IMG/VR virus record: IMGVR_UViG_3300042402_005186
Coordinates: 1 to 57,852 of that record
Direction: 5' to 3' (one strand)
Length of the DNA: 57,852 nt
Source: a virus
Taxonomy: Duplodnaviria; Caudoviricetes
Shown: positions 10,401 through 29,000 of the stretch, piece after piece
Layout of the letters: each line of letters begins with the position of its first letter
Position numbering within the stretch: position 1 is the stretch's first letter
Translations under genes and position numbers: made by a program
Notes under the pieces: model-generated
Seen by the model: only the letters and a program-made list of their open reading frames with translations
The model's database searches: none
Told to the model about the DNA's origin: nothing

Positions 10401-11354
10401 TTAGCCTATGAAAATTTCGCTTGGCATGGAAAGAGTGCTCTTCGCATCTTCTTCCAACTCTTTCATTTCTTCTAATGCTTCATTCATGATTCTGGGGCCA
10501 TCTAGTGTAACTCCACCAGGCATTTGAATACCAGCAAATTTACTTAGATTTGTTCCCCACTGGTATTTAATTTTTGCTGTAGCATATGCTTTTAGAAAAC
10601 GATCATTCCAAACATCGGGATATCCTGTGATTGTCATAGAATTACCTGATGAAGAAGATGCATATGAGGAACTTACATTTAAGGAAGTATCTGATTCAAT
10701 GTTAACAACCCTTTTTGTTTCCCCTGCGATTACGATTTCTTCTCCGATAGAGATTTCTTTAGTAAAACTTGTTCCGCTTCCGGTTACTGTATTTGAAGAA
10801 TTGCTTATTGTCGCAGTGCCCGTCATCGTTGTATTATCAGGAGAAATGTATCGATAACATTCGATGATAATCCAATCACCTTCTTTTAGATCCCTAGTCC
10901 AGTCGATATCTAAGAATAACTTATCCATCTTTCGATTAAATCTTACCTGCGGAGTACCAGAGAATAAAAGATTCAATGTTCGAATATGTTGCATTGTGAT
11001 TTCATATGACACATAAGATACGGAAGTAAAGTCATATAAATCATGCAATCTAAGTTGATATCTCAAATCGAACATATTCACTGATGAATTTGATTGATCG
11101 AACGGAAGAATTCCCGTAATAAACTGAATTGCATCTGGGCAATTAATCCACTGCCTGTCTATATCAATTTGTTTTATTTGGTGCTTCAGGTACATTTGTT
11201 GCGTACCGTCATAGTGATAATCGTTGAAAAAAGCTAGGGCATCATCTATTCTATCTTCAACTTGATCGTCATCCACGTTAATTTGTACAACGGGATGCCC
11301 TAGGCGTCTTAGGCAGTATTCTTTAAATTGTGTTCTTGTTGATATTTTTGCCAT
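10401..11354 (-). CDS. gp13: Neck protein
   Basis: Motifs YCLRRLGHPVVQINVDDDQ and KYQWGTNLSKF.GIQMPGGVTLDG. Confidence 0.95.
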   Translation of the reverse strand: MAKISTRTQFKEYCLRRLGHPVVQINVDDDQVEDRIDDALAFFNDYHYDGTQQMYLKHQIKQIDIDRQWINCPDAIQFITGILPFDQSNSSVNMFDLRYQLRLHDLYDFTSVSYVSYEITMQHIRTLNLLFSGTPQVRFNRKMDKLFLDIDWTRDLKEGDWIIIECYRYISPDNTTMTGTATISNSSNTVTGSGTSFTKEISIGEEIVIAGETKRVVNIESDTSLNVSSSYASSSSGNSMTITGYPDVWNDRFLKAYATAKIKYQWGTNLSKFAGIQMPGGVTLDGPRIMNEALEEMKELEEDAKSTLSMPSEIFIG

Positions 11355-11377: not shown

Positions 11378-11385
11378 TATTTATA
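11378..11385 (-). promoter_or_regulatory. T4 late promoter consensus TATAAATA upstream of gp13
   Basis: Exact consensus. It overlaps the stop codon of the upstream glycosyltransferase gene. Confidence 0.75.
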
Positions 11386-12655
11386 TCTTCAGAGGACCAG
11401 GCAATCTCTGCATACCATCTTTAACTGCTACAAGCCATGCATCAGTGACACAAACATTGAGATTTTTGAGCCAATCATTCGGAAACCAAGTCATTTTTCT
11501 GTATTCCTGAAAACGAATCGATTTATTTTCTATAAATTGTGCGAGATATGCATCCGTATAATATAAGAAACTGTTTTCGTTCCAATAACTTACATGGGTG
11601 GGATCTTGAAACGCTCCTCTCCCATCAGTGCTTGGAACCTGAATAAATGCCCATCCGCCTGGGGCTAAAACCCGATGAATTTCTTCCATGATTTTTGTCT
11701 TATCATGAAGATGTTCGAGTATATGGCTTGCATTTATGACGCCTACAGTATTATCGGGTAGTGGAATTCCATTATTTAAATCGTGAATAATATCTGCGTC
11801 TTTTCTCAAATCTACAGAAATATAGTTCGGATACGGATTTAAACCACCACCCAAATCAACACAAAGTAAATTTTTATCTTTTGCATCTTTTTCTGCTAAT
11901 TTTTGAGCATATTGATTAAACAATTCAACAGTCTTAATTTGAATATCTTGATTTCTTTGTAACCATGTATTGTTACCAGTTATTCTATAAATGTACAAAA
12001 CTTTAGGAATGCGTTTCATCTTAGAGGCAAGATACGTTCGAATCATCAATTCATGATCATCACATATTGAAAGTTCTGGATTATGTCCACCAACTGATTG
12101 GTATACCGATTTTCTCCAACTTCTAACATGATCAGGTGCATACCAAATATAACCGAGAGAATGAGAGGATGGTTCAAAACTGTTCATCGCAATCAACCAT
12201 TTGTCTTTCCATTCAAATAATCGGTGAGTCCATCCAAAGTTACCATCGAAAGGAACAAACTTATCTTCCATATGCAAAACCGCATTGTCGCTGTATACAA
12301 ATCCAATAGACTCATCTTTATATGCTTGCGACAATTCTTCAAGACAATCAGGCGTGAGTAAATCGTCGTGGTCTACTTCAACTAAAATATCTCCTGATCC
12401 GGCATTAAATGCTTTATTTTTAATTGCACCGACATTCGTTTCACCTGAACCATCATAAAAAATACGAACTTTTTCATCTTTTAAAATATCAGGAGGAACT
12501 AAATCTTCAGTGAACTTGTTGTTCAAATATAGTATCCATTCCCAATTTGTATACGATTGATTCTTGATCGTATCGTAAAGCTCAAGTAAAAAAGGAATAT
12601 TACCAGGGTCATGTTCTGGCGTAATAATGCTGAATTTCATAATATACTCACTCAA
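11381..12655 (-). CDS. GT2-family glycosyltransferase fused to a class I SAM-dependent methyltransferase domain
   Basis: N-terminal GT-A motifs FSIITP, EVDHDD (DxD) and CDDHEL. C-terminal motifs VDLGGG, ASHILEHL and RVLAPGG. The start may be the second Met (MKFSII). Confidence 0.85.
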   Translation of the reverse strand: MSEYIMKFSIITPEHDPGNIPFLLELYDTIKNQSYTNWEWILYLNNKFTEDLVPPDILKDEKVRIFYDGSGETNVGAIKNKAFNAGSGDILVEVDHDDLLTPDCLEELSQAYKDESIGFVYSDNAVLHMEDKFVPFDGNFGWTHRLFEWKDKWLIAMNSFEPSSHSLGYIWYAPDHVRSWRKSVYQSVGGHNPELSICDDHELMIRTYLASKMKRIPKVLYIYRITGNNTWLQRNQDIQIKTVELFNQYAQKLAEKDAKDKNLLCVDLGGGLNPYPNYISVDLRKDADIIHDLNNGIPLPDNTVGVINASHILEHLHDKTKIMEEIHRVLAPGGWAFIQVPSTDGRGAFQDPTHVSYWNENSFLYYTDAYLAQFIENKSIRFQEYRKMTWFPNDWLKNLNVCVTDAWLVAVKDGMQRLPGPLKI

Positions 12656-14357
12656 AAAAGAATAAATGTGTCAGTCTTCCGTCTTGATCATTTTGACCAA
12701 AATATGGACCCGCAGAATGTATTGCTCTTGCATCCATAATGAGAAGTCTATTGTATATATTTCCTATATTATCGACGATATCAAACTTAGTGCTATCGTA
12801 AAAACCGGAAGAGAATGACATATCAATACCTTCTTGACTCGAATGTCTAAGACCTGTAATCTTAGAACGGTGCGACCTTGTTCCGCTTTCTAATGGAGCG
12901 TTTGGTGTTAAATAAATCATTCCCGCCCATCTTTGTTGATCATAGTGATAAACTTGTGGATCATTTGAAGTTGTTATTTGAAAACAACCATTGTACCCAT
13001 CATCCCAAAGGGTAATCGTTTGACCTATAATATTTTCAAATGCTCTCTTGATGCTATGAGGTCTATAAGTTTCTTTCGATCTTAACCCTTTATACCAACG
13101 GATATCGGAAGAAAATTCTACAGAAAGTGCATAGTCACGAATACGATCAGGCTCATCATAAAAATTATCAACAACAAAAACTTTTCTATCTAAACTTTTC
13201 TTGATTGAAAAAAGAGGCAACCCTCTCGGTTTAGAATTCTCATACTTACGTAAAGCTCTTTCGTGTATTTCTTGAATTCTTCCTGTTGGACTATCCCAAT
13301 ACATCGAAGTATCAATAAAATTTACATATTTCGGAAAAGCATTCGTTCTTTCTGGTAGCATCATTCTCGAAGTTTGATTAAACATATTTTCATAATCACC
13401 TAGCTTTTCATATAAATTTGCAAGTGCCAATATATGATCATTTCTTCCTGGAGCGAATTTTTCAGAAAGATTATAAGACGTAATCGCCGCTGAATAATTA
13501 TTCAACATTTCATAACATTCACCGCAATATATCATTGATAGATATGAAGTTTCATCAATCGGAACTTCTGTTTTATTTTTATAAAGAAAATTTACATATT
13601 CTTCAAAATAGTAAATAGCTCTTCTTGCATATTCTTTTTGATGAGATAAACCCAAAGGCATTTCTTTACATTCTCTAGCGTCGTAATAACTTTTGCCTAT
13701 GTACCAAAAATGATATAGATTGGATAACATAGTGCGATCAGAGATCATATCTTTTTCTAGAATCAAAGAATGTTTTATGAATTTATATGGATCGCTCCAA
13801 CTTTCTCCTGTATTAAAACCTGTTTGCCTGAAGCTTGGTGGCAAGTCGAATCTTTGGAAGTCTTTTCCTATTTCAGGTAAATCACAGTAAACTGTCTCGT
13901 GACAAGGATCATGATTGAATCTCCACGGCATCTTTGCATTGTACATCCATGCTCTATGATAAATTGAAGTTCCTTGGACAGCAGGGATATGAAAACTGTG
14001 GATTGTTTTATCGTCTAAAAGTGACCAATCAAAATCGTCATCGACTTCTAAAATCTCGTCGCAGTCCATTTTCAAAATCCAATCGCACCCATGGTCTGCG
14101 TTTTGTTGACAATACTGGATTAGATGATCGCGGTTCCAACCGAAACCTTTCCACCCCTCTTCACAAACATATATTTCTCCAGAGAGTTGATTGTCTAATA
14201 AAAATTTTCTAGCAATCTCATCTGTACCATCAGTAGATCCGTTATCTTGCATAACATAATAATCGACATAAGGTAAACACGAATTCAACATTCTAAGAAT
14301 GCTCTTAGATTCATTCTTGAACATTGTAATCATGACGATCTTAGACTTCTTATTCAT
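12648..14357 (-). CDS. GT2 glycosyltransferase / TPR / putative 2OG-Fe(II) oxygenase three-domain fusion
   Basis: GT2 motifs MFKNE, DNGSTDGT and MDCDE. Central TPR-like helices. C-terminal VVDNFY...HYD...WAGMIYL...YNRLL...H.A...RLTHLFFF, typical of the 2OG-oxygenase fold (DUF6445-like). Confidence 0.8.
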   Translation of the reverse strand: MNKKSKIVMITMFKNESKSILRMLNSCLPYVDYYVMQDNGSTDGTDEIARKFLLDNQLSGEIYVCEEGWKGFGWNRDHLIQYCQQNADHGCDWILKMDCDEILEVDDDFDWSLLDDKTIHSFHIPAVQGTSIYHRAWMYNAKMPWRFNHDPCHETVYCDLPEIGKDFQRFDLPPSFRQTGFNTGESWSDPYKFIKHSLILEKDMISDRTMLSNLYHFWYIGKSYYDARECKEMPLGLSHQKEYARRAIYYFEEYVNFLYKNKTEVPIDETSYLSMIYCGECYEMLNNYSAAITSYNLSEKFAPGRNDHILALANLYEKLGDYENMFNQTSRMMLPERTNAFPKYVNFIDTSMYWDSPTGRIQEIHERALRKYENSKPRGLPLFSIKKSLDRKVFVVDNFYDEPDRIRDYALSVEFSSDIRWYKGLRSKETYRPHSIKRAFENIIGQTITLWDDGYNGCFQITTSNDPQVYHYDQQRWAGMIYLTPNAPLESGTRSHRSKITGLRHSSQEGIDMSFSSGFYDSTKFDIVDNIGNIYNRLLIMDARAIHSAGPYFGQNDQDGRLTHLFFFE

Positions 14358-15064
14358 AATGTTCTTTCTTGTATTAATTTCAAAATTTCTGGATCATTTT
14401 TTTGTTTCTCTGTTGGTGAATATAATGCTCTTTTTCTTTTATTCGTATTTTCGTTCGAAGAAACCAGATAATACATTGCGATACTTTTCCTATAAACATT
14501 TTCTGGACAATCAATTGGATTTGAAAACCCATGCCAAGAATTGTGTGTTGTATCGAAAAGCAACAAACGATTAAATTTATTTTCAATAGTTTTTACTAAT
14601 TCTTTAGGTGAATTATTTTCTTGATCATGGGACCAAAATTCTAAATTGCCTCCCCACTCGGGTTTCCATTCCGGTGTTAGATAATATATTAAGTTAAACT
14701 TTCTTTCCATATCCAATTTCGGATGTAGCGAATAATCTAAATGAACATTCAGTCTACCTTCATTGCCTTGGATATGCCAACCCGCACCATGCAGACCTGC
14801 ATCCGGAGTTAGCTCTTCACAGTTAGTCAAACCGCGAAGAAAATTTACAAACTGTGGAGATAAAATGTGTTGAAAAAATTGATATGTTGTTTTTGGAAAG
14901 TAATACCAATTGTTCAGAGCCTTCTTTTTTTCGAGTGGATTATCATAAACAAACCAGTGCTCCGAATTGTAATCAATAAATTCGTTCGATAGTTCTTCTG
15001 CTAAATGATGCGGTAAAAAATTGTCTATAATACAATGCGGAAAAGGATCATTATAAAATTCCAT
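14354..15064 (-). CDS. 2OG-Fe(II) oxygenase (prolyl-hydroxylase-like superfamily)
   Basis: HLD (HxD), WGGNLEFW, SWHGF and RKS motifs. Start reassigned to the ATG at 15064 (MEFYNDPFPH), which has GGAGA upstream and lies 1 nt after the previous stop. Confidence 0.88.
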   Translation of the reverse strand: MEFYNDPFPHCIIDNFLPHHLAEELSNEFIDYNSEHWFVYDNPLEKKKALNNWYYFPKTTYQFFQHILSPQFVNFLRGLTNCEELTPDAGLHGAGWHIQGNEGRLNVHLDYSLHPKLDMERKFNLIYYLTPEWKPEWGGNLEFWSHDQENNSPKELVKTIENKFNRLLLFDTTHNSWHGFSNPIDCPENVYRKSIAMYYLVSSNENTNKRKRALYSPTEKQKNDPEILKLIQERTL

Positions 15065-15065
15065 G

Positions 15066-15638
15066 TTATCTCCATTTCGGACCTTCAAACCAAGCAGCAA
15101 TACTATATCTCGTTCCACGAGTCACTGGATTTGCCCTATGTCTGAATAGAGATGGAAAATAGATGAATGATCCTTGTTCTCGAACTTCTTTATCAAGTTG
15201 AGTACCTGTATCGGTAAGTTCTAAATCACCACCAACATAATCATTTGGATCTGACAATTGAATAACGCAGGAAAGTTTTCTGTGGTACACTGGATCATTA
15301 TTTAACCAAAATACATCATGATGTTCTTTATATTCACCTTTATAGCTCTCATCATATTCAGCGAATTGTATGAAGTCTAATTTAGTAATATGAAGACCGA
15401 AGAAGTCACGATTTGCTTCGAGAGCAGTTTTCCATAGAGCATCGAAGATATATTGATATCTCCAATCTCCCGAATTCATAAATCTAATTTTACTTCTTCG
15501 TGTGCTGTAATTTACGCCTTCACCATTACCAAGACCTACAATTCCATCTTGAACTGGTAATACTTGAACATCTTGTATGATTTTTTCGCAGGTTTCTTTA
15601 CTGAAGTATGATTTAAAATAACACCATTCACCTTTCAT
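15066..15638 (-). CDS. 2OG-Fe(II) oxygenase (P4H/PKHD-type hydroxylase-like)
   Basis: HHD (HxD), RKLSCVIQL, YVGGDLEL and HRANPVTRGTRYS motifs. Confidence 0.9.
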   Translation of the reverse strand: MKGEWCYFKSYFSKETCEKIIQDVQVLPVQDGIVGLGNGEGVNYSTRRSKIRFMNSGDWRYQYIFDALWKTALEANRDFFGLHITKLDFIQFAEYDESYKGEYKEHHDVFWLNNDPVYHRKLSCVIQLSDPNDYVGGDLELTDTGTQLDKEVREQGSFIYFPSLFRHRANPVTRGTRYSIAAWFEGPKWR

Positions 15639-15647
15639 ATTATACCT

Positions 15648-17819
15648 TTACAATTTTGTTTTTATATACTCGATTTGATCCTTTTGTTCTTTGAGGGCTT
15701 GTATGAGTAAAGGAACAACTTTTTCGTACATAATCGTTAAATATTTTTCACCGCTAATGCTGTTTCCATATTTATCACTATCAAACGGAGCAGGTACTAT
15801 TACTTCTGGCAACACTTTTTGAACTTCTTGAGCAATAAAACCTACCTGTTTGATGCCTTGTTTGGTATAGCCTAACTCTTTTGCGAGTTCATTTTCTTCA
15901 TAATAAACCCCTCTAATTTTTTCAAGCTTCTCTAAAGATTTATCTACAGGCCCCAAAATGTCTTTCAGTCTTCTATCCGAATAAAATGAAGTAATTTCTT
16001 GTGTTGCTCTGACTGTTCCTTGTGGTCCTAAAGCAGATCTTATACCAAGAACATCGACTCGGTTTGGATCAACTCCTCTAGGACCTTGCGCTCCGGTTAA
16101 ACCCGTGGGGCCTGCTGCGCCAGCACGACCCATCGGACCACCTAAACCCTGAGCACCTTGTGGGCCGGTAACTCCTGGGGGTCCCGGAGCTCCCATCGCC
16201 CCCTGAACACCTGAAGGTCCTACTGGCCCAGGAACACCTATTGCTCCTTGACGACCTTGGCGACCTTGATTTCCTTGAGGTCCTTGAACACCTTGAGGTC
16301 CTTGAGCACCTGATACACCTTGGCGACCTTGAACGCCAGTTGCACCTTGAGGCCCTTGAACCCCTGTAGACCCTTGAGCGCCTTGTGCGCCTTGAAATCC
16401 TGTTGGTCCTTGAATTCCTTGGAATCCTGTTGGTCCTTGAATTCCTTGAGCACCAGGCGAACCTTGAACACCTTGACGGCCTTGAAACCCCGAAGGTCCT
16501 TGGGCGCCTTGAGCACCAGGAACACCAGTAGCACCAATTACCCCTTGAGCTCCAGGTGCTCCGGTAGGGCCTTGAAATCCTGATGGTCCTTGAGCACCCT
16601 GAACCCCCTGAGCACCAGTATTACCTTGAGCACCAGCGACTCCTGGAACGCCAGCAGCACCTGGAGGACCAGCAGCGCCTTGAGGACCTACCGCTCCCTG
16701 TGCACCTTGGGGACCTTGAGCGCCCGTTAATCCTTGAGCACCGGCAACACCAGGAACACCAGTAGCTCCTGGAGATCCAGTTGCTCCTGAAGGTCCTGTT
16801 AAACCTTGAGCTCCTTGAAATCCTGCTGCTCCATTATTTCCTTGAGCACCGGCAACACCAGGAACACCAGTAGCTCCAGTTGAGCCTGTGGCACCTTGTA
16901 CTCCTTGTGCGCCTTGAGGTCCTTGAGCACCAATCGCACCTTGAGGTCCTTGGACACCAGAGACTCCTGGAACTCCAGTAGCTCCAGTTGAGCCTGTGGC
17001 ACCTTGTACTCCTTGTGCGCCTTGAGGTCCCTGTGCGCCTTGAACACCTTGAGGGCCTTGTGCTCCAACGACCCCACTTACTCCCTGCGGTCCAGTTGAA
17101 CCCAAAGGTCCCTGAAAGCCTGAAGGTCCCTGAACCCCTTGAGCTCCTTGTATTCCTTGGGGGCCAACAGAGCCAGTTACACCAACAATTCCTTGTGGCC
17201 CGGAATTACCTGAAGGTCCTTGAAACCCTTGCGGCCCAGGTGATCCTGCCGCACCCGTTGCTCCAGGAGAACCTTGGGCTCCAGTCGTTCCTATTACACC
17301 AGAAACCCCTGTAGAGCCTGTTAATCCTTGAAATCCTGCTGGTCCTGTAGGACCCTGTGCGCCTTGAGGTCCTTGAGCACCTTGAACGCCTTGTAGTCCT
17401 TGGAACCCTTGCGGTCCAGTAATTCCTTGAGGTCCTTGTGGTCCTTGAGACCCGACAAGCCCTTGAGGTCCTTGAGCACCTTGCGGGCCTTGTGCACCAG
17501 AAACTCCTTGTGAACCGACAGCACCTTGAGCACCAATAGTACCCGGAGCGCCTGTTGGTCCTTGAGGACCTTGGGCACCTTGAGCACCCTGTGGACCTTG
17601 AGCACCCTGTGGACCTTGAGCGCCTGAAGCTCCCTGTGTGCCTGAAGATCCTTGAGGACCTTGAGCCCCGGCAATACCAGGCACTCCAGAAACTCCCTGT
17701 GGGCCCTGAGGACCTTTTATATTAAGTGTGTCTCCAATCCAAACACCATTCGCAGCAACGACGCCATAAGTTTCGATTGTAAGTCCGTTTTTAACTACGA
17801 AAGGTTTTGTTGTAGCCAA
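15648..17819 (-). CDS. Collagen-like fibre protein 3 with C-terminal peptidase S74 intramolecular chaperone
   Basis: About 180 apparently uninterrupted Gly-X-Y triplets. S74 motifs YSDRRLK and GFIAQEV. TTG start. Confidence 0.92.
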
Positions 17820-17821
17820 AA

Positions 17822-20497
17822 TTATTTACCTCTTCTTTCTATTTCTTTTAACAAATCGGCTATCATAACTTGCTGTTCTTTAATTGCTTGTGTAATAACT
17901 GGTATTAATCTCTCGTATTGTACGGCTAAAAAGTCATGACCGGATTTACTATTTCCGTGTTCATTAATATCGAAAGGTGCCCTATCGATAACTTCAGGAA
18001 CAGATGGTTGTATTTGTTGAGCAATCAATCCAACTCTTCGCTTTTGATCCTTCTCATAACCATATTTTTCTGCTAAACGATTTTGCGTAAAGTATATACC
18101 AGTCATGCTTAATATTTTTTCCAAACAATTATCTATAATAGAGATTTTCGTCTTCAATCTTTTATCGGAGAAATTAGAAGTTATCTCTGCTGTAGCTCGA
18201 ATAGTACCTTGAGGGCCTGCGGCCGTGTTTAATCCAAGTGCATTTAAACTGGCACTAGAAGTTGTTCCTTGTATCCCTTGTGGTCCAATAAATCCTTGTC
18301 TTCCCGTAGGACCAGGAGGACCTTGAACGCCTTGAGCGCCCGTTGGTCCTCTAGGTCCCTGAGCACCAGCGAGCCCTTGTGCGCCTTGTGCGCCTTGTGG
18401 ACCATTATTACCCGGAAAACCAAAAACGCTACCTTGGGGTCCTTGAGCCCCTTGAGCGCCTTGTGCGCCTTGTGCGCCTTGAGCTCCAGCAATATTTTGT
18501 GAACCCGCAGATCCCTGTACACCCTGTGCACCTTGAACACCTTGAGGTCCTCTTGCAGGAAAACTTGAAAAATTATTAAAAGCAACATCTATAAAACCAG
18601 AAGTGCCAGTATAATAAAAAGATGAATCTATATAAAAAGTTCTATCAGGTCCATCTAACATTTCTCGCTGAAGAGATCCATTTATCCAATACCTAACATA
18701 AACGTTATCATATGTTATAGAAAATTGTGTAGTGGAATCATATCCTGGAAATTCTCCAACATATGTTCCATTTTCATATATTTGAGTGCCTCCTCCATAA
18801 TAAGGATACCAAGCATAGTCGATGGTGGCATAACCTGCATTTGTTGCAGGATCACTATTCAAACCGCACATTACATAATTGAGATTATCATTTCTTCTAA
18901 AAGAAACGAAAGCACCACTCGTAAATCCAGTTGACGAATAAAACTGACCGTCCCAATCTCCATTAGTTCCCGTGTTTTTATAAAAATAACTTGCATCCGA
19001 TGAGGATTGAATGACACCACCAGAAACTACTGCGGTAAAGTTGCTTGATGAACCTGCATATCCTTTTCTGGCAAATCCTTGTGGACCTTGAGCACCAGCA
19101 ACTCCCTGTGGACCTTGAGCACCAGCAACTCCTTGGGCACCGACAACTCCCGGTGCCCCTTGCGGGCCTTGTGGTCCTATATTATTCGAAGGTCCTTGAG
19201 GTCCCTGAACGCCTTGAGCCCCTTGACGACCTTGAAATCCAGCGGGCCCTTGTGCTCCGACAACACCTTGTGCTCCAGAAATACCAGCAACACCTTGTGC
19301 TCCAGGAGAACCTGTCGCGCCTTGAACACCTTGGCGACCTTGAAAACCAGCAACAGCACTTGTTGGTCCAGTGATTCCTTGTACACCTACAGGCCCCTGA
19401 AAGCCAGAAGGTCCTTGTGCTCCAGTCGCACCTTGAGCCCCTTGACGACCTTGAGCACCAACAAGCCCCTGAACTCCTGCAACTCCCTGAGGGCCTATAG
19501 TTCCTTGAGGTCCTTGAGCACCGGGAGCACCTGTTGCACCCTGAACACCTTGACGTCCCTGAAATCCGGTGGGACCTTGTGCACCAACTACCCCTTGTGC
19601 GCCAACAGGAGCAGTACCCTGAGCGCCGGGAATCCCTGTTGCACCCTGAACACCTTGACGGCCTTGAAAACCAGTGGGACCTTGAACACCAACTGCTCCT
19701 TGTGCTCCGACCGGTGCAGTACCTTGAACTCCTTGAGCCCCAACTGGTCCCTGAACTCCCTGAACACCTTGAAATCCAGTGGGGCCTTGAGAACCTTGTG
19801 GTCCTTGGAATCCAGCAGGAGCATTACCTTGAGCGCCTTGTCTACCAGAAGCGCCTTGTATTCCTTGAACTCCTTGAAATCCTTGCGGGCCAGTAGCACC
19901 CTGTGGTCCTTGAAAACCAGAAGGAGAAGATCCTTGGATTCCGGGTGGCCCAAATGGTCCTTGTGATCCTTGAACACCCTGAAACCCCTGCGGACCAGTA
20001 GATCCTTGCGGACCTTGAGCGCCCTGTACGGAAGATCCTTGTGGGCCTGCAAGACCCTGAGCACCTTGTGAACCAGGGGAACCTTGAGCGCCAGGTGCTC
20101 CTGTTGTTCCTTGAGGACCTTGTGCACCTGGATTTCCTTGAGAACCAGCAACTCCTATATCACCGATTTCACCAGAGAACCCAAGAGCTCCTGCGCTACC
20201 AGATTCGCCTTGTGCGCCTTGAGGTCCTTGAATACCAGAAGCTCCTGTTGACCCCTGTGGACCTTGTGCTCCAGGTGATCCTTGTGGGCCTGGTTGTCCA
20301 ATAAATCCGGTGGGTCCCTGGATACCTGGAGCCCCTATATTCCCCTGAGCGCCCTGAGAACCTTGTGCTCCCTGTGCACCTGCGTAAGATGATGGCTGAC
20401 CAACCCATTTTCCTAATGAGTTAATTATGTTATGGGTGCCTGTAGTATTACTGACAGACACTCCATTTTTAACTATAAAATTTCTATCGGTTGCCAT
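17822..20497 (-). CDS. Collagen-like fibre protein 2 with internal globular domain and S74 chaperone
   Basis: Gly-X-Y repeats with periodic interruptions and an aromatic-rich insert of about 170 aa. S74 motifs FSDKRLK and GLIAQQI. Confidence 0.92.
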
Positions 20498-22697
20498 TCA
20501 ATCTTTCTCTGAGAGCTTCTATTTCTTTTTGTTGTTCTTTGATCGTTTCTACAATAAGTGGTATCAAATATTGGTAATGAACCGTTAAATAATTTTCACC
20601 GCTTCTACTCTGTTCATTCTCATCAATATCAAATGGAGCAAGAGTAACGATTTCAGGTAAAACTTTTTGTACTTCTTGTGCTATTACGCCTATTTGTTTT
20701 TTATAGTCGTGATAACCAAATTTTTCTGCATGAGAATTTTGTTTGTAAAAAATGCCATTCAGTGAATAAAGTTTTTCACCAGCATTCTTTATGTATTCGA
20801 TGTTATCTTTTAATCTGATATCAGAGTAAAATGAGGTTATCGTACTTGTAGCTCTGAGTGTTCCTGTTGGACCTGCGGCAGTATTTACACCTAATGAAGC
20901 AATAGAAACGCTTGGTGTTCCTGGGACTCCGGCTGAAAGATCTCCTGGAGTACCTTGAGCTCCTGTTGGTCCTTGGGCACCTTGAGCTCCCGAAGTACCT
21001 GGAGGACCTTGGGGTCCTGTAACACTTGACGGAGGACCTGTATTTCCTTGAGCCCCAGGCGACCCATTAGCACCAAATGTAAAAGATGAAGGTCCTTGTG
21101 GACCTTGGACTCCTTGAGCACCAGGAACTCCCGGAGCACCAGGAACACCAGTAAAACCCACTCGTCCTTGAAATCCTGATGGGCCTTGTGCCCCAGAAAC
21201 TCCAATTGATCCTTGTGCTCCTTGTCTTCCTGCGGCCGCGGTTGGACCTATGGCTCCGTTTACACTAGTATTGCCTTGAGCACCGGCAATTCCTTGAACA
21301 CCTTGAGCGCCAGCGATTCCTTGAGTGCCTTGAACTCCCTGTCTTCCTTGGATCCCAGAAGGACCAGTTGTACCAAGAACTCCTTGAGGACCTGTTGCGC
21401 CAGTAGGATTAGTTCCTTGTGCTCCCTGAGGTCCTTGAAATCCTGCGGGTCCTTGAACGCCTTGAAAACCTTGTCTTCCTTGTGCGCCTTGAAATCCTGC
21501 AGGACCTTGAACGCCAGCGGGCCCCTGAGCTCCTTGAGGTCCTTGAATTCCAGTCGGACCTTGAATACCCTGTGTTCCCGTAAAACCCACTTGTCCTTGA
21601 AAACCCGAAGGGCCTTGTGCACCAGCAGGACCCTGTGCGCCCTGAGCGCCTGGAGGTCCTTGAACACCTTGAGCACCTGTGACTGAAGATGCTGCACCTT
21701 GAGCACCTTGAAATCCCGCAGGACCTTGTGCACCCGCAGGACCTTGTGCACCCTGTGGACCCTGAGCACCTGCAACTCCTGGTACACCTTGAGCACCTGC
21801 TGTTCCAGTGGGCCCCTGAAATCCCGCAGGACCTTGTGCACCCGCAGGACCTTGTGCACCCTGTGGACCCTGAGCACCTGCAACTCCTGGTACACCTTGA
21901 GCACCTGCTGTTCCAGTGGGCCCCTGAAAACCTTGTGGTCCGAGTGAACCTACTGAACCTTGTGCACCTTGAGGTCCTTGAATACCAGAAGCTCCTGTTG
22001 ACCCCTGTGGACCTTGTTCTCCAGGAATTCCAATCGGTCCTTGAGCGCCTTGAGCACCCGGAGAACCCTGAGCGCCTTGAGGTCCTTGAGCGCCTGATGA
22101 TCCTGTTGTTCCTTGAGGACCTTGCACACCCGATCCTCCTTGAACACCTTGAGCGCCTTGAGGGCCGACTGCACCTTGAGTTCCTTGAGGACCTTGTGCA
22201 CCAGAAGCACCGGATGAACCTTGAGGTCCTTGAGCTCCTGGGGCTCCGGTATCTCCAGTCGTTCCCACCATTCCAGGAACGCCAGTATTTCCAGTTAGTC
22301 CTTGAAACCCTATAGCTCCGTTAGCGCCAACATTACCAGTAAATCCTATTCCACCTTGAAATCCTTGGGGACCTTTTGAACCTTGAGGGCCTTGTGCACC
22401 AACTGCTCCCTGTGCGCCTTGAGGGCCTTGTGCTCCAGAAGCGCCTGGATCTCCACCAACTCCGGGAGCTCCATCAACACCAGAAAAGCCCGGTGTGGTA
22501 CTTGCAGATCCTTGGGGTCCTTGTGCTCCCGGTGTTCCTTGAGCTCCCGGTGAACCAGGAGAACCTGAAGCTCCTGCAAAACCTGCGTCACCTGTTATAT
22601 TATCTGGCGGTCCAACCCATCGACCGTCCGAATCAATGACTGATTCAGTACCGACGTTTATGCCATTTTTTACTACGAAATTTTTATCTGTTGCCAA
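20484..22697 (-). CDS. Collagen-like fibre protein 1 with S74 chaperone
   Basis: Long Gly-X-Y region. S74 motifs YSDIRLK and GVIAQEV. TTG start preceded by GGGGA. Confidence 0.92.
21709..21929. repeat. Exact 108-bp tandem duplication inside collagen gene 1
   Basis: The unit starting aaatcccgcaggacc occurs at 21711 and 21819 and encodes a 36-aa (12-triplet) repeat. Confidence 0.9.
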
Positions 22698-22725: not shown

Positions 22726-23319
22726 TTAGATGGGTATTAGGGTGATCGAAGCTTTGACTGTTGTCGATGAAAAGGTGGGAGTGAATAAGACACTTAGTGT
22801 TCCTGTTGTAATAGATGCATCGAATGCGCCGAGAGAATTTGCTGTTGTTTTTATTTCGCCGTATTGAGTTAAGAAAACGTTTGCGCCATCATGAGTCATT
22901 GACAATTCAATTACGTTATATTCCGAACCGCTTGTTATTTGAACGAAGTATTTTGCTGAACGATAGGTTCCTGAAGGCCATGAATCGAAAGTAATTTGTG
23001 ATAAACCTGATGTTGTAACTGTAGTAGATTCAATTAAAGCATGAGCATTTACACTAATCTTTTCTGTGCTTAATGTGCTTGTGCTTGTGTTATACTTTAG
23101 CTTATTTGATGCACCAAATGATCCGAGATTGTTAAATTGAATCTCACCATCAAGCCCCGCTGGTTCAGTTACAGTATCTAACTGTATTACGTGATTAGTA
23201 TTATTACCATAGTATAATTTACCATCACTTGAGTTGATGGCAAGTTCTCCAGGCTGTAGCGTTGAAGGTACATTACCTGAAGAACCAGAATGTCTTAACT
23301 GTATTATTGTATTTGCCAT
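22726..23319 (-). CDS. Putative fibre adaptor / virion structural protein
   Basis: N-terminus MANTIIQLRHS...LQPGELAIN..DGKLYYG resembles fibre N-terminal anchor domains and the N-terminus of 23952..25370. Beta-rich C-terminal domain. Confidence 0.6.
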   Translation of the reverse strand: MANTIIQLRHSGSSGNVPSTLQPGELAINSSDGKLYYGNNTNHVIQLDTVTEPAGLDGEIQFNNLGSFGASNKLKYNTSTSTLSTEKISVNAHALIESTTVTTSGLSQITFDSWPSGTYRSAKYFVQITSGSEYNVIELSMTHDGANVFLTQYGEIKTTANSLGAFDASITTGTLSVLFTPTFSSTTVKASITLIPI

Positions 23320-23329
23320 CTAGTGAATC

Positions 23330-23929
23330 TTAGAATGTTCCTCCAGACCTAACACTATTATCCGGAGTTTCCGTTTGAATTATTTTTTCGGAGACGGCAG
23401 ATCCATTAGTTTTAATTTTCTTCAACTTATTTGCCGGCAACTCTGTTTCTAACTTTTCGATATATTTAGTTAGCTCATCCAAACGGGTGTTATTTCTGAG
23501 TAAAACATCCTGTGATTCACTTTTTGCTCGCAGTAATTCGTTTTTAGCCTCATTAAGCTGTCTCATATAATCATTAACAGCTTGTTGTAGCCTAGTTTTC
23601 TCTTGTGCTATAGAATTTAAATTAGAAATTTCTGAAGATTTGGAATTCAAATCATTTTTTAATGCATCTCTTTCAACAGTTAAAGCATTTATGATTCTAT
23701 CTTTTTCGACTGTTGAAGAATTAATAACTCTATCTTTTTCTACAAGAGTTTTTTGCAATTCTGTATTAGAATTCGAAAGCTCTTGAACTTTTCTTTTCGT
23801 TTCATTCGCTTCTTGAATTTCTGTTTTCAGTGTTTCTAACTGAGCCTGAAATAAAATGTTTTGCTTGACAACCGCTAGAAAATTGTCAAGCAAAACCTGA
23901 GAGTAAGCATTTTGCAATTTCACATCCAT
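23330..23929 (-). CDS. Coiled-coil hypothetical protein ending in GGTF
   Basis: Long heptad-like charged helical sequence. Confidence 0.7.
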   Translation of the reverse strand: MDVKLQNAYSQVLLDNFLAVVKQNILFQAQLETLKTEIQEANETKRKVQELSNSNTELQKTLVEKDRVINSSTVEKDRIINALTVERDALKNDLNSKSSEISNLNSIAQEKTRLQQAVNDYMRQLNEAKNELLRAKSESQDVLLRNNTRLDELTKYIEKLETELPANKLKKIKTNGSAVSEKIIQTETPDNSVRSGGTF

Positions 23930-26005: not shown

Positions 26006-29000
26006 TTATTTTTTCTTTAATTCTTCGAGTTTATTGTCTATTTCTTTAATTGCTTCGATTAATAACGGTATCAATCTTTCATAATGTACTGTCATATACT
26101 GCGAACTTATCGGTGCAGAAGACACTACTTCAGGGAGAACTTTCTGAACTTCTTGTGCGCTGACACCAACTTTTCTTTCATCGGTAAATCCAAGCTCTTT
26201 TGCTGTTTCGTTTGCTTTGTAGAAAAAACCCGAAAGTTGTTTTACTTTATCGAGAGCATTTTCGATATTGCCTAATTTATCTTTGAGTCTATCATCAGAA
26301 TAAGAAGATGTTATTTCACCGGTTGCTACAATTGATGCATCAACATTTATTTTACCTGAAGATCCGCTTCTACTAATCAGAACAATATCATTATTAGAAG
26401 CAATTACGATTTCAGCTCCAAGTTCTGCTGCGTCCATTACTCCCGTACCAGCTCCAACTCTTATGTAATTTTTTACGTTTGAAGTTGTACTGGTTGTACC
26501 TCCAGTTATAATAACTCCTCCTCCCCGTTCAACTCCTACCGATGCAGATAATAAATTGTTTGGAATAACCATTATTCCAGTAGATAGATTATTAGCATGC
26601 TGTATTACAAAAGGAACATTTGCAACAGAATCGACAGAGGTAACTCCTGTTAGAATACTATTAAAAGAGGAAGCATCACCAGCTAGTATCGTGCCTGATC
26701 CATTGATATCATAAGATGGTTTTACTACCATCTTAACTTTATTATTGTTTTGATAACTTGTTCTAGATTCACTTACGGTAACATCACCGAAGTTTAGAGA
26801 ACCTGTAAGAGTATCGCCGGCTTTAGCGACTTTAAGTGCAGCTAGATCATAAGCAGTCTTAACTGAGTTTGGCGTTGCTGCTGTTGTTGTACTCGTGCTC
26901 GAAGTAGAGTCAGTAAGTTGAACGATACCAGTTTCGCTAGTTGTGCCGGAACGAATCGTAGTATTTGTTACTCCGGTTATATGGCCTGTCGCATTTACTA
27001 CTATAACTGGAACTGCAACACTTGTTCCATGCGTTGCTGCGGTAACACCAGAAGCCTCATGAGAAATTGATATCGTACCAGAAGACGTTGTTACACTTAT
27101 CGGGGTAGTGTTACTTGCACTACGAATTACTCGTGTACCTGTATCAAATACTCCAGTGGCACTATAAACAGGACCCGTTGAAATTATGTTTGCTGACCAG
27201 AGATTCGCTTGTGTACTGATACCTCCGGTAACTCTCAAAGCTCCGGTTGTCGTACTTGTTGCCGTGCTAGTATTACTGATGATCAGTCTTCCTGTCATCG
27301 TATCACCATCTCTAGCAACTTTATTATCTGCTAATCCATAAGCGGTGTCTGCTGCGTCTTGGGCAATAACGACCAAATCATAAACAGTCTTAACGGAATT
27401 TGGCGTTGCCGCATTTGAAGTGCTTGTGCTTGTTACAGAATCTTGAAGAAGAACAATACCAGTGTGTGTTGTATTCGCAAGTCGTAATCTCGCAGCAGGC
27501 AATTCGCCTGAACTAATGTTCGAAGCATTTGTTGTATCAATGGTAGCCGAAGGAGCAAGTCCAGAAACTGCTGCTGCGGCTATAGCAATTGCAACATTAC
27601 TTGCCGCCATTATATGACCAGTATTGCTTACTTGGAATGTAGGTACTTGTGATGCGCTTCCGTAGTATGCATTAGCTGATGTAGTAACACCAGAACCGGC
27701 GTGGTAGAATAGACCATTCGTCGAATCATACTGTATAGGTTGTGTAGAATTTGCAGTTGCGCTTACAGAAATATTTGAAGCATTAACATTATTTCTAACT
27801 CTAGCAGCAGTTAAAAATAAATTAGAAGTTGCTTCTGTAATATGGGAAGTTGATCCGGGTATTGTTATTACGCCAGTAGAATTATTATATGCTGCTGAGC
27901 CAGTTGTTGCAGAAAGTGCTTGTCTTGCTCTCGAATCTAGGTAATAGAGATTTGTTCCTTCTGTGAGATACGATGTACTATTAGCTAATCTAAATTCACC
28001 TGCGGTTATTCCATTATTTGCAACCCATGCATCAATAGATTCATTCCAACGAATATAGGTATTAGTATTAGCGCCTCTATTAATTATTATTCCTGCATTT
28101 TGCGTTGCTTGAACATTTGTTGGTAAATTAGAATTCAATACGATTTCGTTGTCTGCTAAATTTATTTCTTCAGTGTTTATAGTAGTGACGCTACCAGATA
28201 CCGTAAGGTCTCCGCCAATAGTTACATTATTATTAAAAGTAATATTTTGATTTACTGCTTGTGCTGCGCCTGGACTTAGTTTAACGAAAGTTGAGTCTGT
28301 ATAACTTTTCAAATTAGTGTTAGCAACATCAACATAAGACTTCATGTTAGTGTTGGCCACATCAACATATGACTGCATATTAGTGTTGGCCACATCAACA
28401 TAAGACTTCATATTGGTGTTGGCCACATCAACATAAGACTTCATATTGGTGTTGGCTGTAACTAAATTATCTTGAACAGTTTTAACTGCTTTCGAACTTG
28501 CTAAATTATCCGAACTGTTTAATGTTATACTATCACTAATCAGATTTGCAGTTAATGCTTTCGAAAATCCTGTAGAATCATTTAAATTGTTTACATCTCT
28601 AAATTGCCATACTTTATTAAGATCATCCCAACGAATTTCAGCGTCTACATTGTCCAAATCTTGGATAGCAGTATTTCCCGTTCCGTTAAAATCAAGTAGG
28701 GTTCCAGGATATCCAGCCGAAGTAGAAAGTCTGAAAGTATTAGTTCCTGTAACGGTAACTCGATATGTCGTTCCGTTAGCAAGACCTGTTATACCTGTAC
28801 TTAATGAAGAAAGTCTAACATTTTGTCCATTTGTAAACCCATGGCTACTCAAAGTTATTACATCAGTAGTTCCATTTACTGCGGCTAATGATGCTGCGGT
28901 ATTGGTTCTATTGACAGTAAAGTAATCGTATCCGGCACCTAAAGTTTGTTTCGTAGATGCCATTAATTTAATACGATTCGTATCAACTAATTGTTGGCCT

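Follow-up and report, generated by a model that had tools for sequence, protein, structure and literature searches.

In animals and in mimivirus, collagen is known to be matured by enzymes. According to the parts of the literature consulted, LH3/PLOD3 with COLGALT1 in animals, and L230 with R699 in mimivirus, carry out Lys hydroxylation followed by the addition of Gal-Glc. PMC9301287 cites the idea that a virus hydroxylates Pro-rich or collagen repeats of its own and states that the role of viral prolyl 4-hydroxylase "remains cryptic". No report of a collagen-modifying system in a phage or cyanophage was found in the literature searched; the supplementary tables of PMC7029224 and PMC3037559 may list such clusters. 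Here we describe a seven-gene cassette in a 57,852-base stretch of viral DNA (hereafter the window), which is the whole of IMG/VR record IMGVR_UViG_3300042402_005186 (completeness estimate 33%). In this cassette, three genes for collagen-like fibres adjoin four genes for predicted 2-oxoglutarate (2OG)-Fe(II) oxygenases, glycosyltransferases (GTs) and a methyltransferase. From gene content and predicted models, we consider it fairly likely that the cassette hydroxylates and glycosylates the phage's own collagen-like fibres, as a fibre-tailoring insertion that separates the fibre genes of a T4-like aquatic myovirus from gp13.

Like the animal and mimivirus systems, the window couples a 2OG oxygenase to a GT and encodes both with a putative collagen substrate. 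LH3 is also among the fold matches of the 569-aa protein of the cassette (E 2e-7), where the multi-domain matches to AspH and LH3 have low template-modelling (TM) scores. In contrast to LH3 and L230, the window has one Lys in 528 Gly-X-Y triplets, GT2 domains instead of GT25 or PLOD-GT (no match to PF25342 or PF01755 was found in its enzymes) and a DUF6445 oxygenase; its host is bacterial and the product would be a virion fibre of a tailed phage. By analogy, the cassette would parallel LH3/L230 in logic, with different enzyme families and probably a different target residue. GT25 and PLOD-GT domains do occur beside a Lys-bearing collagen fibre in the relatives S-CAM9 and S-PRM1.

The glycocin S/O-glycosyltransferases SunS and ThuS have the two-domain architecture, GT2 plus a TPR-like domain, that is predicted for the 569-aa protein, but they act on small ribosomal peptides at Cys or Ser, whereas the enzyme of the window carries an oxygenase domain in the same chain and is associated with collagen repeats. 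The exosporium collagen BclA of Bacillus is a bacterial collagen-like filament with O-glycosylated GPT repeats; the repeats of the window are Gln-rich rather than GPT, and oxygenases belong to its set. Chlorovirus A064R combines two GT domains with a sugar methyltransferase that caps a virion glycan, and the GT2-methyltransferase fusion of the window is likened to it by description only.

Collagen-like fibres and predicted tailoring enzymes

A reading of the sequence made without database searches (the sequence-only reading) had described seven co-oriented, tightly packed genes at 11381-22697 within a late structural block. All seven were found there on the minus strand, with inter-gene distances of -8, -4, -53, 9, 2 and -14 nt for the longest open reading frames (ORFs), hence the proposed maximum of 9 nt holds; likelier ATG starts at 12640 and 15064 change the first and third junctions to ~+7 and ~+1. 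T4-like structural genes flank both sides according to PHROG matches, and Pfam called the domain types that had been named, namely three collagen proteins with S74, 2OG oxygenase, two GT2 domains and a methyltransferase.

All three fibre proteins belong to the collagen repeat family (PF01391, cut-off 27.2 bits), with E 5e-86 and 282.8 bits for the 723-aa protein, E 3e-72 and 238.8 bits for the 891-aa protein, and E 2e-75 and 248.9 bits for the 737-aa protein; the triple helix itself is a prediction. Each also contains Peptidase_S74 (PF13884, cut-off 22 bits; in the same order E 2.5e-11, 2.9e-9 and 4e-13, with 44.1, 37.5 and 49.9 bits), which begins at the Ser of SDxRLK, at residues 614 (SDRRLK), 777 (SDKRLK) and 625 (SDIRLK). 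We take this Ser to be the start of an endosialidase-type S74 intramolecular chaperone, and autocleavage is predicted. An N-terminal motif is common to the three fibres and was found nowhere else in the window. With the textbook collagen rise of ~0.29 nm per residue, 183 triplets correspond to ~157 nm.

The helices are nearly free of charge, as had been claimed, since the 528 triplets hold K 1, D 7 and E 3 (R 18). The proposed list of Y residues, Gln, Thr, Ser and Pro, was recovered, but its members are far from equal: Gln dominates Y (279, or 53%; T 63, P 48, A 43, S 38), and Pro is located mainly at X (121, beside A 158 and V 76) and not at Y. In fibre 2, the collagen is interrupted by a globular, Tyr/Ser/Gly-rich insert of 173 aa (residues 477-649, window 18551-19069, minus strand). 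Pfam assigned it no family, its nearest clusters in the Atlas are unnamed viral and bacterial proteins, and the Atlas gave a weak SPRY lead (0.87); a stand-alone relative of the insert adjoins gp13 in locus L307. The long-tail-fibre-like protein of 1761 aa (26006-31291, minus strand) also ends in an S74-type chaperone (SDDRLK), without collagen repeats, so that at least four fibres of the phage rely on S74.

Glycos_transf_2 (PF00535, cut-off 23.3 bits) was detected in the 569-aa protein (E 5e-9) and the 424-aa protein (E 1.3e-9), the two scores being 38.6 and 36.8 bits, and the DXD motif of the GT2 family is conserved in both. In the 569-aa protein, the GT2 domain occupies ~residues 1-190 (window 13788-14357), followed by a TPR-like helical region at residues 192-375 (13233-13784) and by DUF6445 at residues 385-569 (12651-13205; Pfam E 1.2e-5). 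The TPR region that had been proposed from the sequence drew no call from Pfam, whereas the predicted model has helices at 192-375 and weak matches to designed TPR proteins (E 4.6e-4). The model of the whole protein has a predicted local distance difference test (pLDDT) score of 88.8, and its best fold match is SunS/ThuS (E 7.5e-14, TM to target 0.56-0.62) over ~residues 1-380. Sequence identity to SunS/ThuS is only 15-17%, D98-C-D100 is invariant, and the acceptor is a prediction from the model. The 424-aa protein contains Methyltransf_11 (PF08241, E 3e-10, 41 bits, cut-off 21.2) and conserves D90-H-D-D93 and D262-x-G-x-G266 in 69 sequences, as expected of a GT2 domain fused to a class I S-adenosylmethionine (SAM) methyltransferase.

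The two stand-alone oxygenases, OG190 and OG236, both match 2OG-FeII_Oxy_3 (PF13640; E 1.5e-15 for the 190-aa protein and 5e-16 for the 254-aa protein). OG190, which matched phrog_61 (E 2.6e-31) and PiuC in the PDB (E 7e-8), is most like the PiuC/YbiX-type "PKHD" hydroxylases, and its H106, D108, H167 and R177 are conserved in at least 97% of 75 distinct sequences. OG236 matched human OGFOD1 (E 1.4e-8) and a Dictyostelium prolyl hydroxylase (E 1.7e-4) in the PDB, with H108, D110, H178 and R192 conserved (48 sequences). Against NCBIfam, the enzymes gave sub-threshold matches only. The third 2OG oxygenase domain announced by the sequence-only reading proved to be DUF6445, in which H471, D473, H547 and R561, the HxD...H triad and Arg, are invariant in 28 sequences. 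Because the model of the isolated domain (pLDDT 92.2) matches the folds of OGFOD1, a YbiX-like protein and PHD2 (E ~1e-5, TM 0.5-0.64), we regard DUF6445 as a third 2OG oxygenase of the protein-hydroxylase kind; EvdO1, an oxygenase acting on sugar, appears at rank 29 among its fold matches. All three domains thus have the HxD...H triad and the basic 2OG residue of the prolyl-hydroxylase-like branch, and among 28-75 relatives the iron triads, 2OG arginines, DXD and SAM motifs of the cassette are either invariant or conserved to at least 97%. In the literature searched, no mention of DUF6445 and no paper on PiuC as a hydroxylase were found.

Linkage of the enzymes to collagen genes and collagen types

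IMG/VR was searched with the 569-aa protein and with OG190, 80 loci were listed for each, and their ORFs were labelled by script, giving 71 lineages after clustering. A recurring order was observed, consisting of two small genes, one to three collagen-S74 genes, OG190, OG236, GT2-TPR-DUF6445, GT2-methyltransferase and gp13, at 47-93% identity of the 569-aa protein. In lineages with the complete set of four enzyme genes and 2 kb or more of sequence before it, a collagen gene lay directly upstream in 18 of 18 cases. The GT pair by itself had an adjacent collagen gene in 0 of 4 lineages (collagen elsewhere in the locus in 1 of 4), and among 12 lineages with OG190 only, collagen was present somewhere in the locus in 9 and collagen or an S74 fibre in 11. 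A minimal variant of the cassette consists of collagen, OG190, a stand-alone DUF6445 and a 256-aa GT2. In loci L050 (1014-3912) and L057 (4257-8697), the cassette is enlarged by a sulfotransferase, a P-loop protein resembling adenosine 5'-phosphosulfate (APS) kinase, a sugar nucleotidyltransferase/cupin and an extra GT2, which suggests sulfated glycans or sulfated hydroxy residues.

A neutral sample was anchored on gp13, for which 560 relatives matched; of the best 80 loci, the 34 with at least 5 kb upstream were used and 46 with short flanks were dropped. Enzymes and collagen occurred together in 16 loci, enzymes only in 1, collagen only in 2 and neither in 15 (Fisher p 2e-6, uncorrected for kinship). 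The two collagen-only loci contain a 248-aa ORF with 16 triplets. Mapped on the gp13 tree, the enzymes show 6-7 changes of state; among phylogenetically independent pairs, collagen shifted along with the enzymes in 4-5, against them in 0 and stayed constant in 1-2. Judged from these gene contents, several joint gains or losses of enzymes and collagen appear to have occurred. Relatives that lack the enzymes have other fibres in this position, and because the two small genes abut gp13 in these relatives, the cassette behaves as an insertion. In a search anchored on S74, 67 S74-bearing loci were obtained, 63 of them without collagen; of these 63, an OG190-like match was present in 1 and the other three enzymes in none. 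The S74 loci without collagen are nearly enzyme-free, and therefore the enzymes follow collagen, not S74 fibres in general. Co-occurrence across related phages, which had been put forward as a check, thus came out as linkage: the enzyme genes are not independent of the collagen genes.

The type of enzyme also appears to be matched to the type of collagen. Pooled by lineage, at least 25% Gln at Y was found in 25 of 26 phage lineages bearing DUF6445 (0.41-0.89; the exception is L125), as against 2 of 17 without it, and a profile built from the DUF6445 alignment revealed no hidden DUF6445 in the BLAST-negative loci. Loci with OG190 only have Gly-Pro-Thr-type repeats, and two other loci without DUF6445 have Gly-X-Ser. 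The latter belong to related phages, L277 (1611-8600) and L278 (3-1770), whose collagens have 79-94% Ser at Y; L277 has only a 648-aa GT2-methyltransferase-like gene and L278 none of the four enzymes. These may represent a third pairing of collagen and enzymes.

Cultured phages display both main pairings. In DSL-LC02, DUF6445 stands beside three collagens with Gln at 25/30, 19/38 and 53/116 Y positions, and in S-SCSM2R a TPR-DUF6445 protein lies ~6 kb from a collagen with Gln at 53/67. A 717-aa protein in DSL-LC02 (L002, 7827-9977) adjoins DUF6445 and the three Gly-Thr-Gln collagens and combines TPR with an FkbM methyltransferase and with a radical-SAM/SPASM domain, the latter of a kind commonly seen in peptide maturases. 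Among cultured phages, OG190 has its nearest homologues in S-CAM9 (48.7%) and S-PRM1 (48.2%), where the gene follows the fibre genes and lies beside a second 2OG oxygenase and a 619-aa protein, which in S-CAM9 matches GT25 (E 1e-28) and PLOD-GT (E 8e-47). In the adjacent 1831-aa fibre of these phages (L155, 2537-11396, for S-CAM9; L156 for S-PRM1), Y of 59 triplets is Lys in 22 and Thr in 24. From its genes, this set looks like hydroxylysine glycosylation of the mimivirus and animal type in a phage.

Among bacterial genome contigs, collagen was present at 11 of 80 DUF6445 loci; all 11 are among the 19 best matches, and all have 28-61% Gln at Y. The set of Thiothrix and Thiolinea comprises DUF6445, a GT2-Methyltransf_11 fusion like that of the window, and collagen, with the genes on opposite strands in Thiothrix. 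In a metagenome-assembled genome of Thiolinea (L316, 9515-14308), DUF6445, the GT2-methyltransferase fusion, a 165-aa gene and a 524-aa Gln/Thr-rich collagen lie between dnaE and rnhB-lpxB-lpxA. This is a housekeeping neighbourhood and not a prophage, and the collagen may be a modified cell-surface or sheath collagen. Taken from sequence, DUF6445 appears to go with Gly-X-Gln collagens and GT25 plus PLOD-GT with Lys-bearing ones. A broader proposal is a Y-residue code in which each prokaryotic or phage collagen type has its own tailoring set, Lys with GT25/PLOD-GT, and Gln with DUF6445 as a Gln-directed hydroxylase whose product would receive an O-linked glycan from the fused GT2 and then a methyl cap. 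We put this code forward tentatively and hold it to be doubtful in this full form.

Proposed mechanism and competing explanations

In the tailoring of the phage's own fibres that we favour, the cassette would be expressed late and the oxygenases would hydroxylate side chains of the still-unfolded collagen chains. The SunS-like GT2-TPR part, fused to the DUF6445 oxygenase, would then add a sugar to the chain, either at the new hydroxyl, following the logic of LH3 and mimivirus L230, or at Thr or Ser. The GT2-methyltransferase would lengthen the glycan and then O-methylate it. Finally, S74 would drive trimerisation and cleave itself off at the conserved Ser, and the end product would be uncharged, glycan-coated fibres of roughly 150 nm. 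Methyl-capping and the purposes that the sequence-only reading had attached to the system (stability, shielding and recognition) we infer only.

The tailoring probably does not proceed by animal-type proline or lysine chemistry, which was set aside as the main mechanism. Collagen prolyl 4-hydroxylases (P4Hs), such as animal C-P4H, PBCV-1 P4H and Bacillus anthracis P4H, share PF13640 with OG190 and OG236, but the closest solved relatives of the window's enzymes are PiuC/YbiX and OGFOD1. With a single Lys in the triplets, lysine chemistry is excluded in the window. Pro occupies Y in only 48 of 528 triplets, and locus L076 keeps the enzymes with a collagen almost without Pro; the animal-style hydroxylation of Y-position Pro that had served as precedent is accordingly doubtful. 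For the DUF6445 branch, a target connected with Gln at Y, and not with Pro or Lys, is the most likely.

Several observations weigh against tailoring of the fibres by the cassette. The modification itself is a prediction from genes and models. OG236, GT2-TPR-DUF6445 and GT2-methyltransferase without OG190 have an adjacent collagen in only 2 of 6 lineages, and in L082 and L084 the 10 kb to each side of the GT pair are free of collagen. In L076, the three oxygenases are all present with a collagen containing 4% Pro at X and 0% at Y. At 69 of the 80 bacterial DUF6445 loci, no collagen was present in the flanks. Among distant DUF6445 homologues (27-32% identity) of cultured cyanophages, three of five are in genomes without collagen above the Pfam cut-off (S-SSM7, Sf-FS3 and S-WAM2), and in S-SSM7 and Sf-FS3 the gene lies in a ten-gene sugar island, amid fucosyl- and galactosyl-type transferases and sugar-nucleotide genes. 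Because of these islands in genomes without collagen, the DUF6445 family is not collagen-exclusive and might act on sugars. On the statistical side, the sign test of enzymes against collagen on the gp13 tree gave p 0.06-0.125, underpowered and short of significance at this sample size, and DUF6445 against Gln on the OG190 tree rests on only 2-3 independent changes (p 0.5-1). Physical linkage also confounds the association, since neighbours in a hypervariable island can be exchanged together without a functional link.

That last point feeds an explanation in which the oxygenase genes have a general auxiliary role, with host proteins, other proteins of the phage or 2OG levels as targets, and travel with collagen as mere neighbours. 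OGFOD1 and bacterial prolyl hydroxylases act on translation factors. The OG190 family is widespread, in 266 phage records, mostly away from fibres and often beside UvsW or ferrochelatase genes, and the association tests corrected for kinship are those just given. The part of PMC3037559 consulted proposes that the 2OG oxygenases of cyanophages serve in DNA repair or in 2OG/nitrogen signalling, and is silent on collagen. We nevertheless think this explanation improbable: enzyme set and collagen Y residue seem to correspond across separate lineages and differing gene arrangements, the opposite strands of Thiothrix among them, the OG190 subfamily of at least 48% identity is always beside fibre genes in the records examined, and one oxygenase domain is fused to a peptide-GT-like domain. 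Remodelling of the host envelope by the GTs, methyltransferase and oxygenases (lipopolysaccharide O-chain, capsule or surface proteins, for example against superinfection), with the genes merely housed in a host-recognition island, is to our minds equally improbable. It agrees with the reading, in the part of PMC7029224 consulted, of GTs in the "host recognition cluster" island of pelagimyophages as modifiers of the host O-chain; the sulfotransferase, APS-kinase-like gene and sugar nucleotidyltransferase of the enlarged cassettes also fit polysaccharide synthesis, and the DUF6445 genes of S-SSM7 and Sf-FS3 lie away from fibres. Against it, the enzymes track collagen genes and not simply the island, where enzyme-less relatives retain other fibres; the GT2-TPR fold is nearest to peptide glycosyltransferases; the oxygenases are protein-hydroxylase-like; and the enzyme-collagen trio also exists in a non-phage chromosomal setting.

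The same sugar islands, together with EvdO1 among the fold matches, would be accommodated if the fibres are glycosylated but DUF6445, perhaps along with the other oxygenases, tailors the sugar and not the polypeptide. We judge this unlikely, as the best fold matches of DUF6445 are protein prolyl hydroxylases and its link to Gln-rich collagens would be left unexplained. Phages do glycosylate hydroxylated bases, and the enzymes could accordingly be imagined to hypermodify phage DNA by hydroxylation and then glycosylation, as in a 2026 paper on glycosylated 5-hydroxycytosine (PMC13326640); the terms 2-oxoglutarate, oxygenase and hydroxylase are absent from its text. Action on DNA, which the sequence-only reading had named as an outcome opposed to its own, is rejected on domain content and seems to us extremely improbable. 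By PDB and fold comparison, the oxygenases fall in the PHD/OGFOD1/YbiX protein-hydroxylase branch, outside the DNA-acting branches, and searches of Pfam, PDB and folds found no TET/JBP-, AlkB- or thymidylate-synthase-like domain in the block. In addition, the genes sit in the structural block, and the trio accompanies a collagen gene in a bacterial chromosome.

Genomic setting and significance

The cassette lies in a minus-strand, T4-like structural block identified by PHROG matches, and the positions of its genes and of its boundaries are collected in Table 1. Portal, sheath, large and small terminase and gp15-, gp14- and gp13-like neck genes lie on the low-coordinate side. On the high-coordinate side are two small conserved genes, a 472-aa structural protein, fibre-like proteins of 1761 aa and 2119 aa, and baseplate wedge genes. 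Identity of the portal to cultured phages is at most 53.7%, with Synechococcus myoviruses best, and megablast of the enzyme block against 50,697 phage records gave zero matches.

Table 1 Genes of the cassette and its boundaries in the window
Feature	Position	Strand	Description and evidence
Collagen-like fibre gene 1, 737 aa, TTG start	20484..22697	-	~35-aa N-terminal domain, 174 Gly-X-Y triplets in 7 runs, C-terminal S74
Collagen-like fibre gene 2, 891 aa	17822..20497	-	171 triplets in 11 runs, 173-aa non-collagen insert, C-terminal S74
Collagen-like fibre gene 3, 723 aa, TTG start	15648..17819	-	Single unbroken run of 183 triplets (residues 36-584); S74 from Ser614
OG190, predicted 2OG-Fe(II) oxygenase, 190 aa, YbiX/PiuC-like	15066..15638	-	Pfam PF13640, phrog_61, PDB
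OG236, predicted 2OG-Fe(II) oxygenase, OGFOD1-like, 236 aa from ATG (ORF to GTG at 15118 = 254 aa)	14354..15064	-	Pfam PF13640/PF13661, PDB
GT2-TPR-DUF6445 protein, 569 aa	12648..14357	-	Pfam, predicted model, fold search
GT2 + class I SAM methyltransferase fusion, 419 aa from ATG at 12640 (ORF to TTG at 12655 = 424 aa)	11381..12640	-	Pfam PF00535, PF08241
gp13-like neck protein, downstream cassette boundary	10401..11354	-	phrog_211 E 8.5e-40
Two conserved small genes, 197 aa and coiled-coil-like 199 aa, upstream cassette boundary	22726..23929	-	Abut gp13 in enzyme-less relatives

Directly upstream of gp13, the T4 late-promoter-like motif TATAAATA at 11378-11385 (minus strand) overlaps the stop of the GT2-methyltransferase gene; across the window, TATAAATA is not enriched (3 observed, 6.4 expected). 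Between 10000 and 26500, sigma-70-like promoters (39, with 36.7 expected) and terminators (12, with 12.5 expected) gave no signal. A hairpin with a 16-bp stem and a T-rich tail at 23858-23896 (minus strand), immediately following the 472-aa structural gene, overlaps the start annotated for the 199-aa ORF. It may delimit transcripts in front of the small genes, fibres and enzymes. The G+C content is 48-54% over the collagen genes (16001-22000) and ~35% elsewhere; because codons for Gly, Pro, Ala and Gln account for this rise, it does not of itself point to a foreign origin.

The window contributes the GT2-methyltransferase fusion, the SunS-like fold and a bacterial chromosomal counterpart, and the cultured phages S-CAM9, S-PRM1, DSL-LC02 and S-SCSM2R make fibre tailoring directly testable. 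In the parts of the literature consulted, the oxygenases and GTs of aquatic phages are currently read as genes for DNA repair, nitrogen signalling or host lipopolysaccharide. If the proposed tailoring is true, some of these abundant "orphan" 2OG-Fe(II) oxygenases and glycosyltransferases would gain a testable substrate, and the receptor-facing fibres of phages would turn out to carry a glycan coat, a matter of relevance to the recognition of hosts and the stability of the fibres. The cassette may also reveal a collagen chemistry directed at Gln, which would be of interest to work on recombinant collagen materials. If the Y-residue code is true, glycosylated hydroxyglutamine would be a collagen modification unknown in any organism, and DUF6445, as well as part of the abundant cyanophage 2OG oxygenases, would have a first function.

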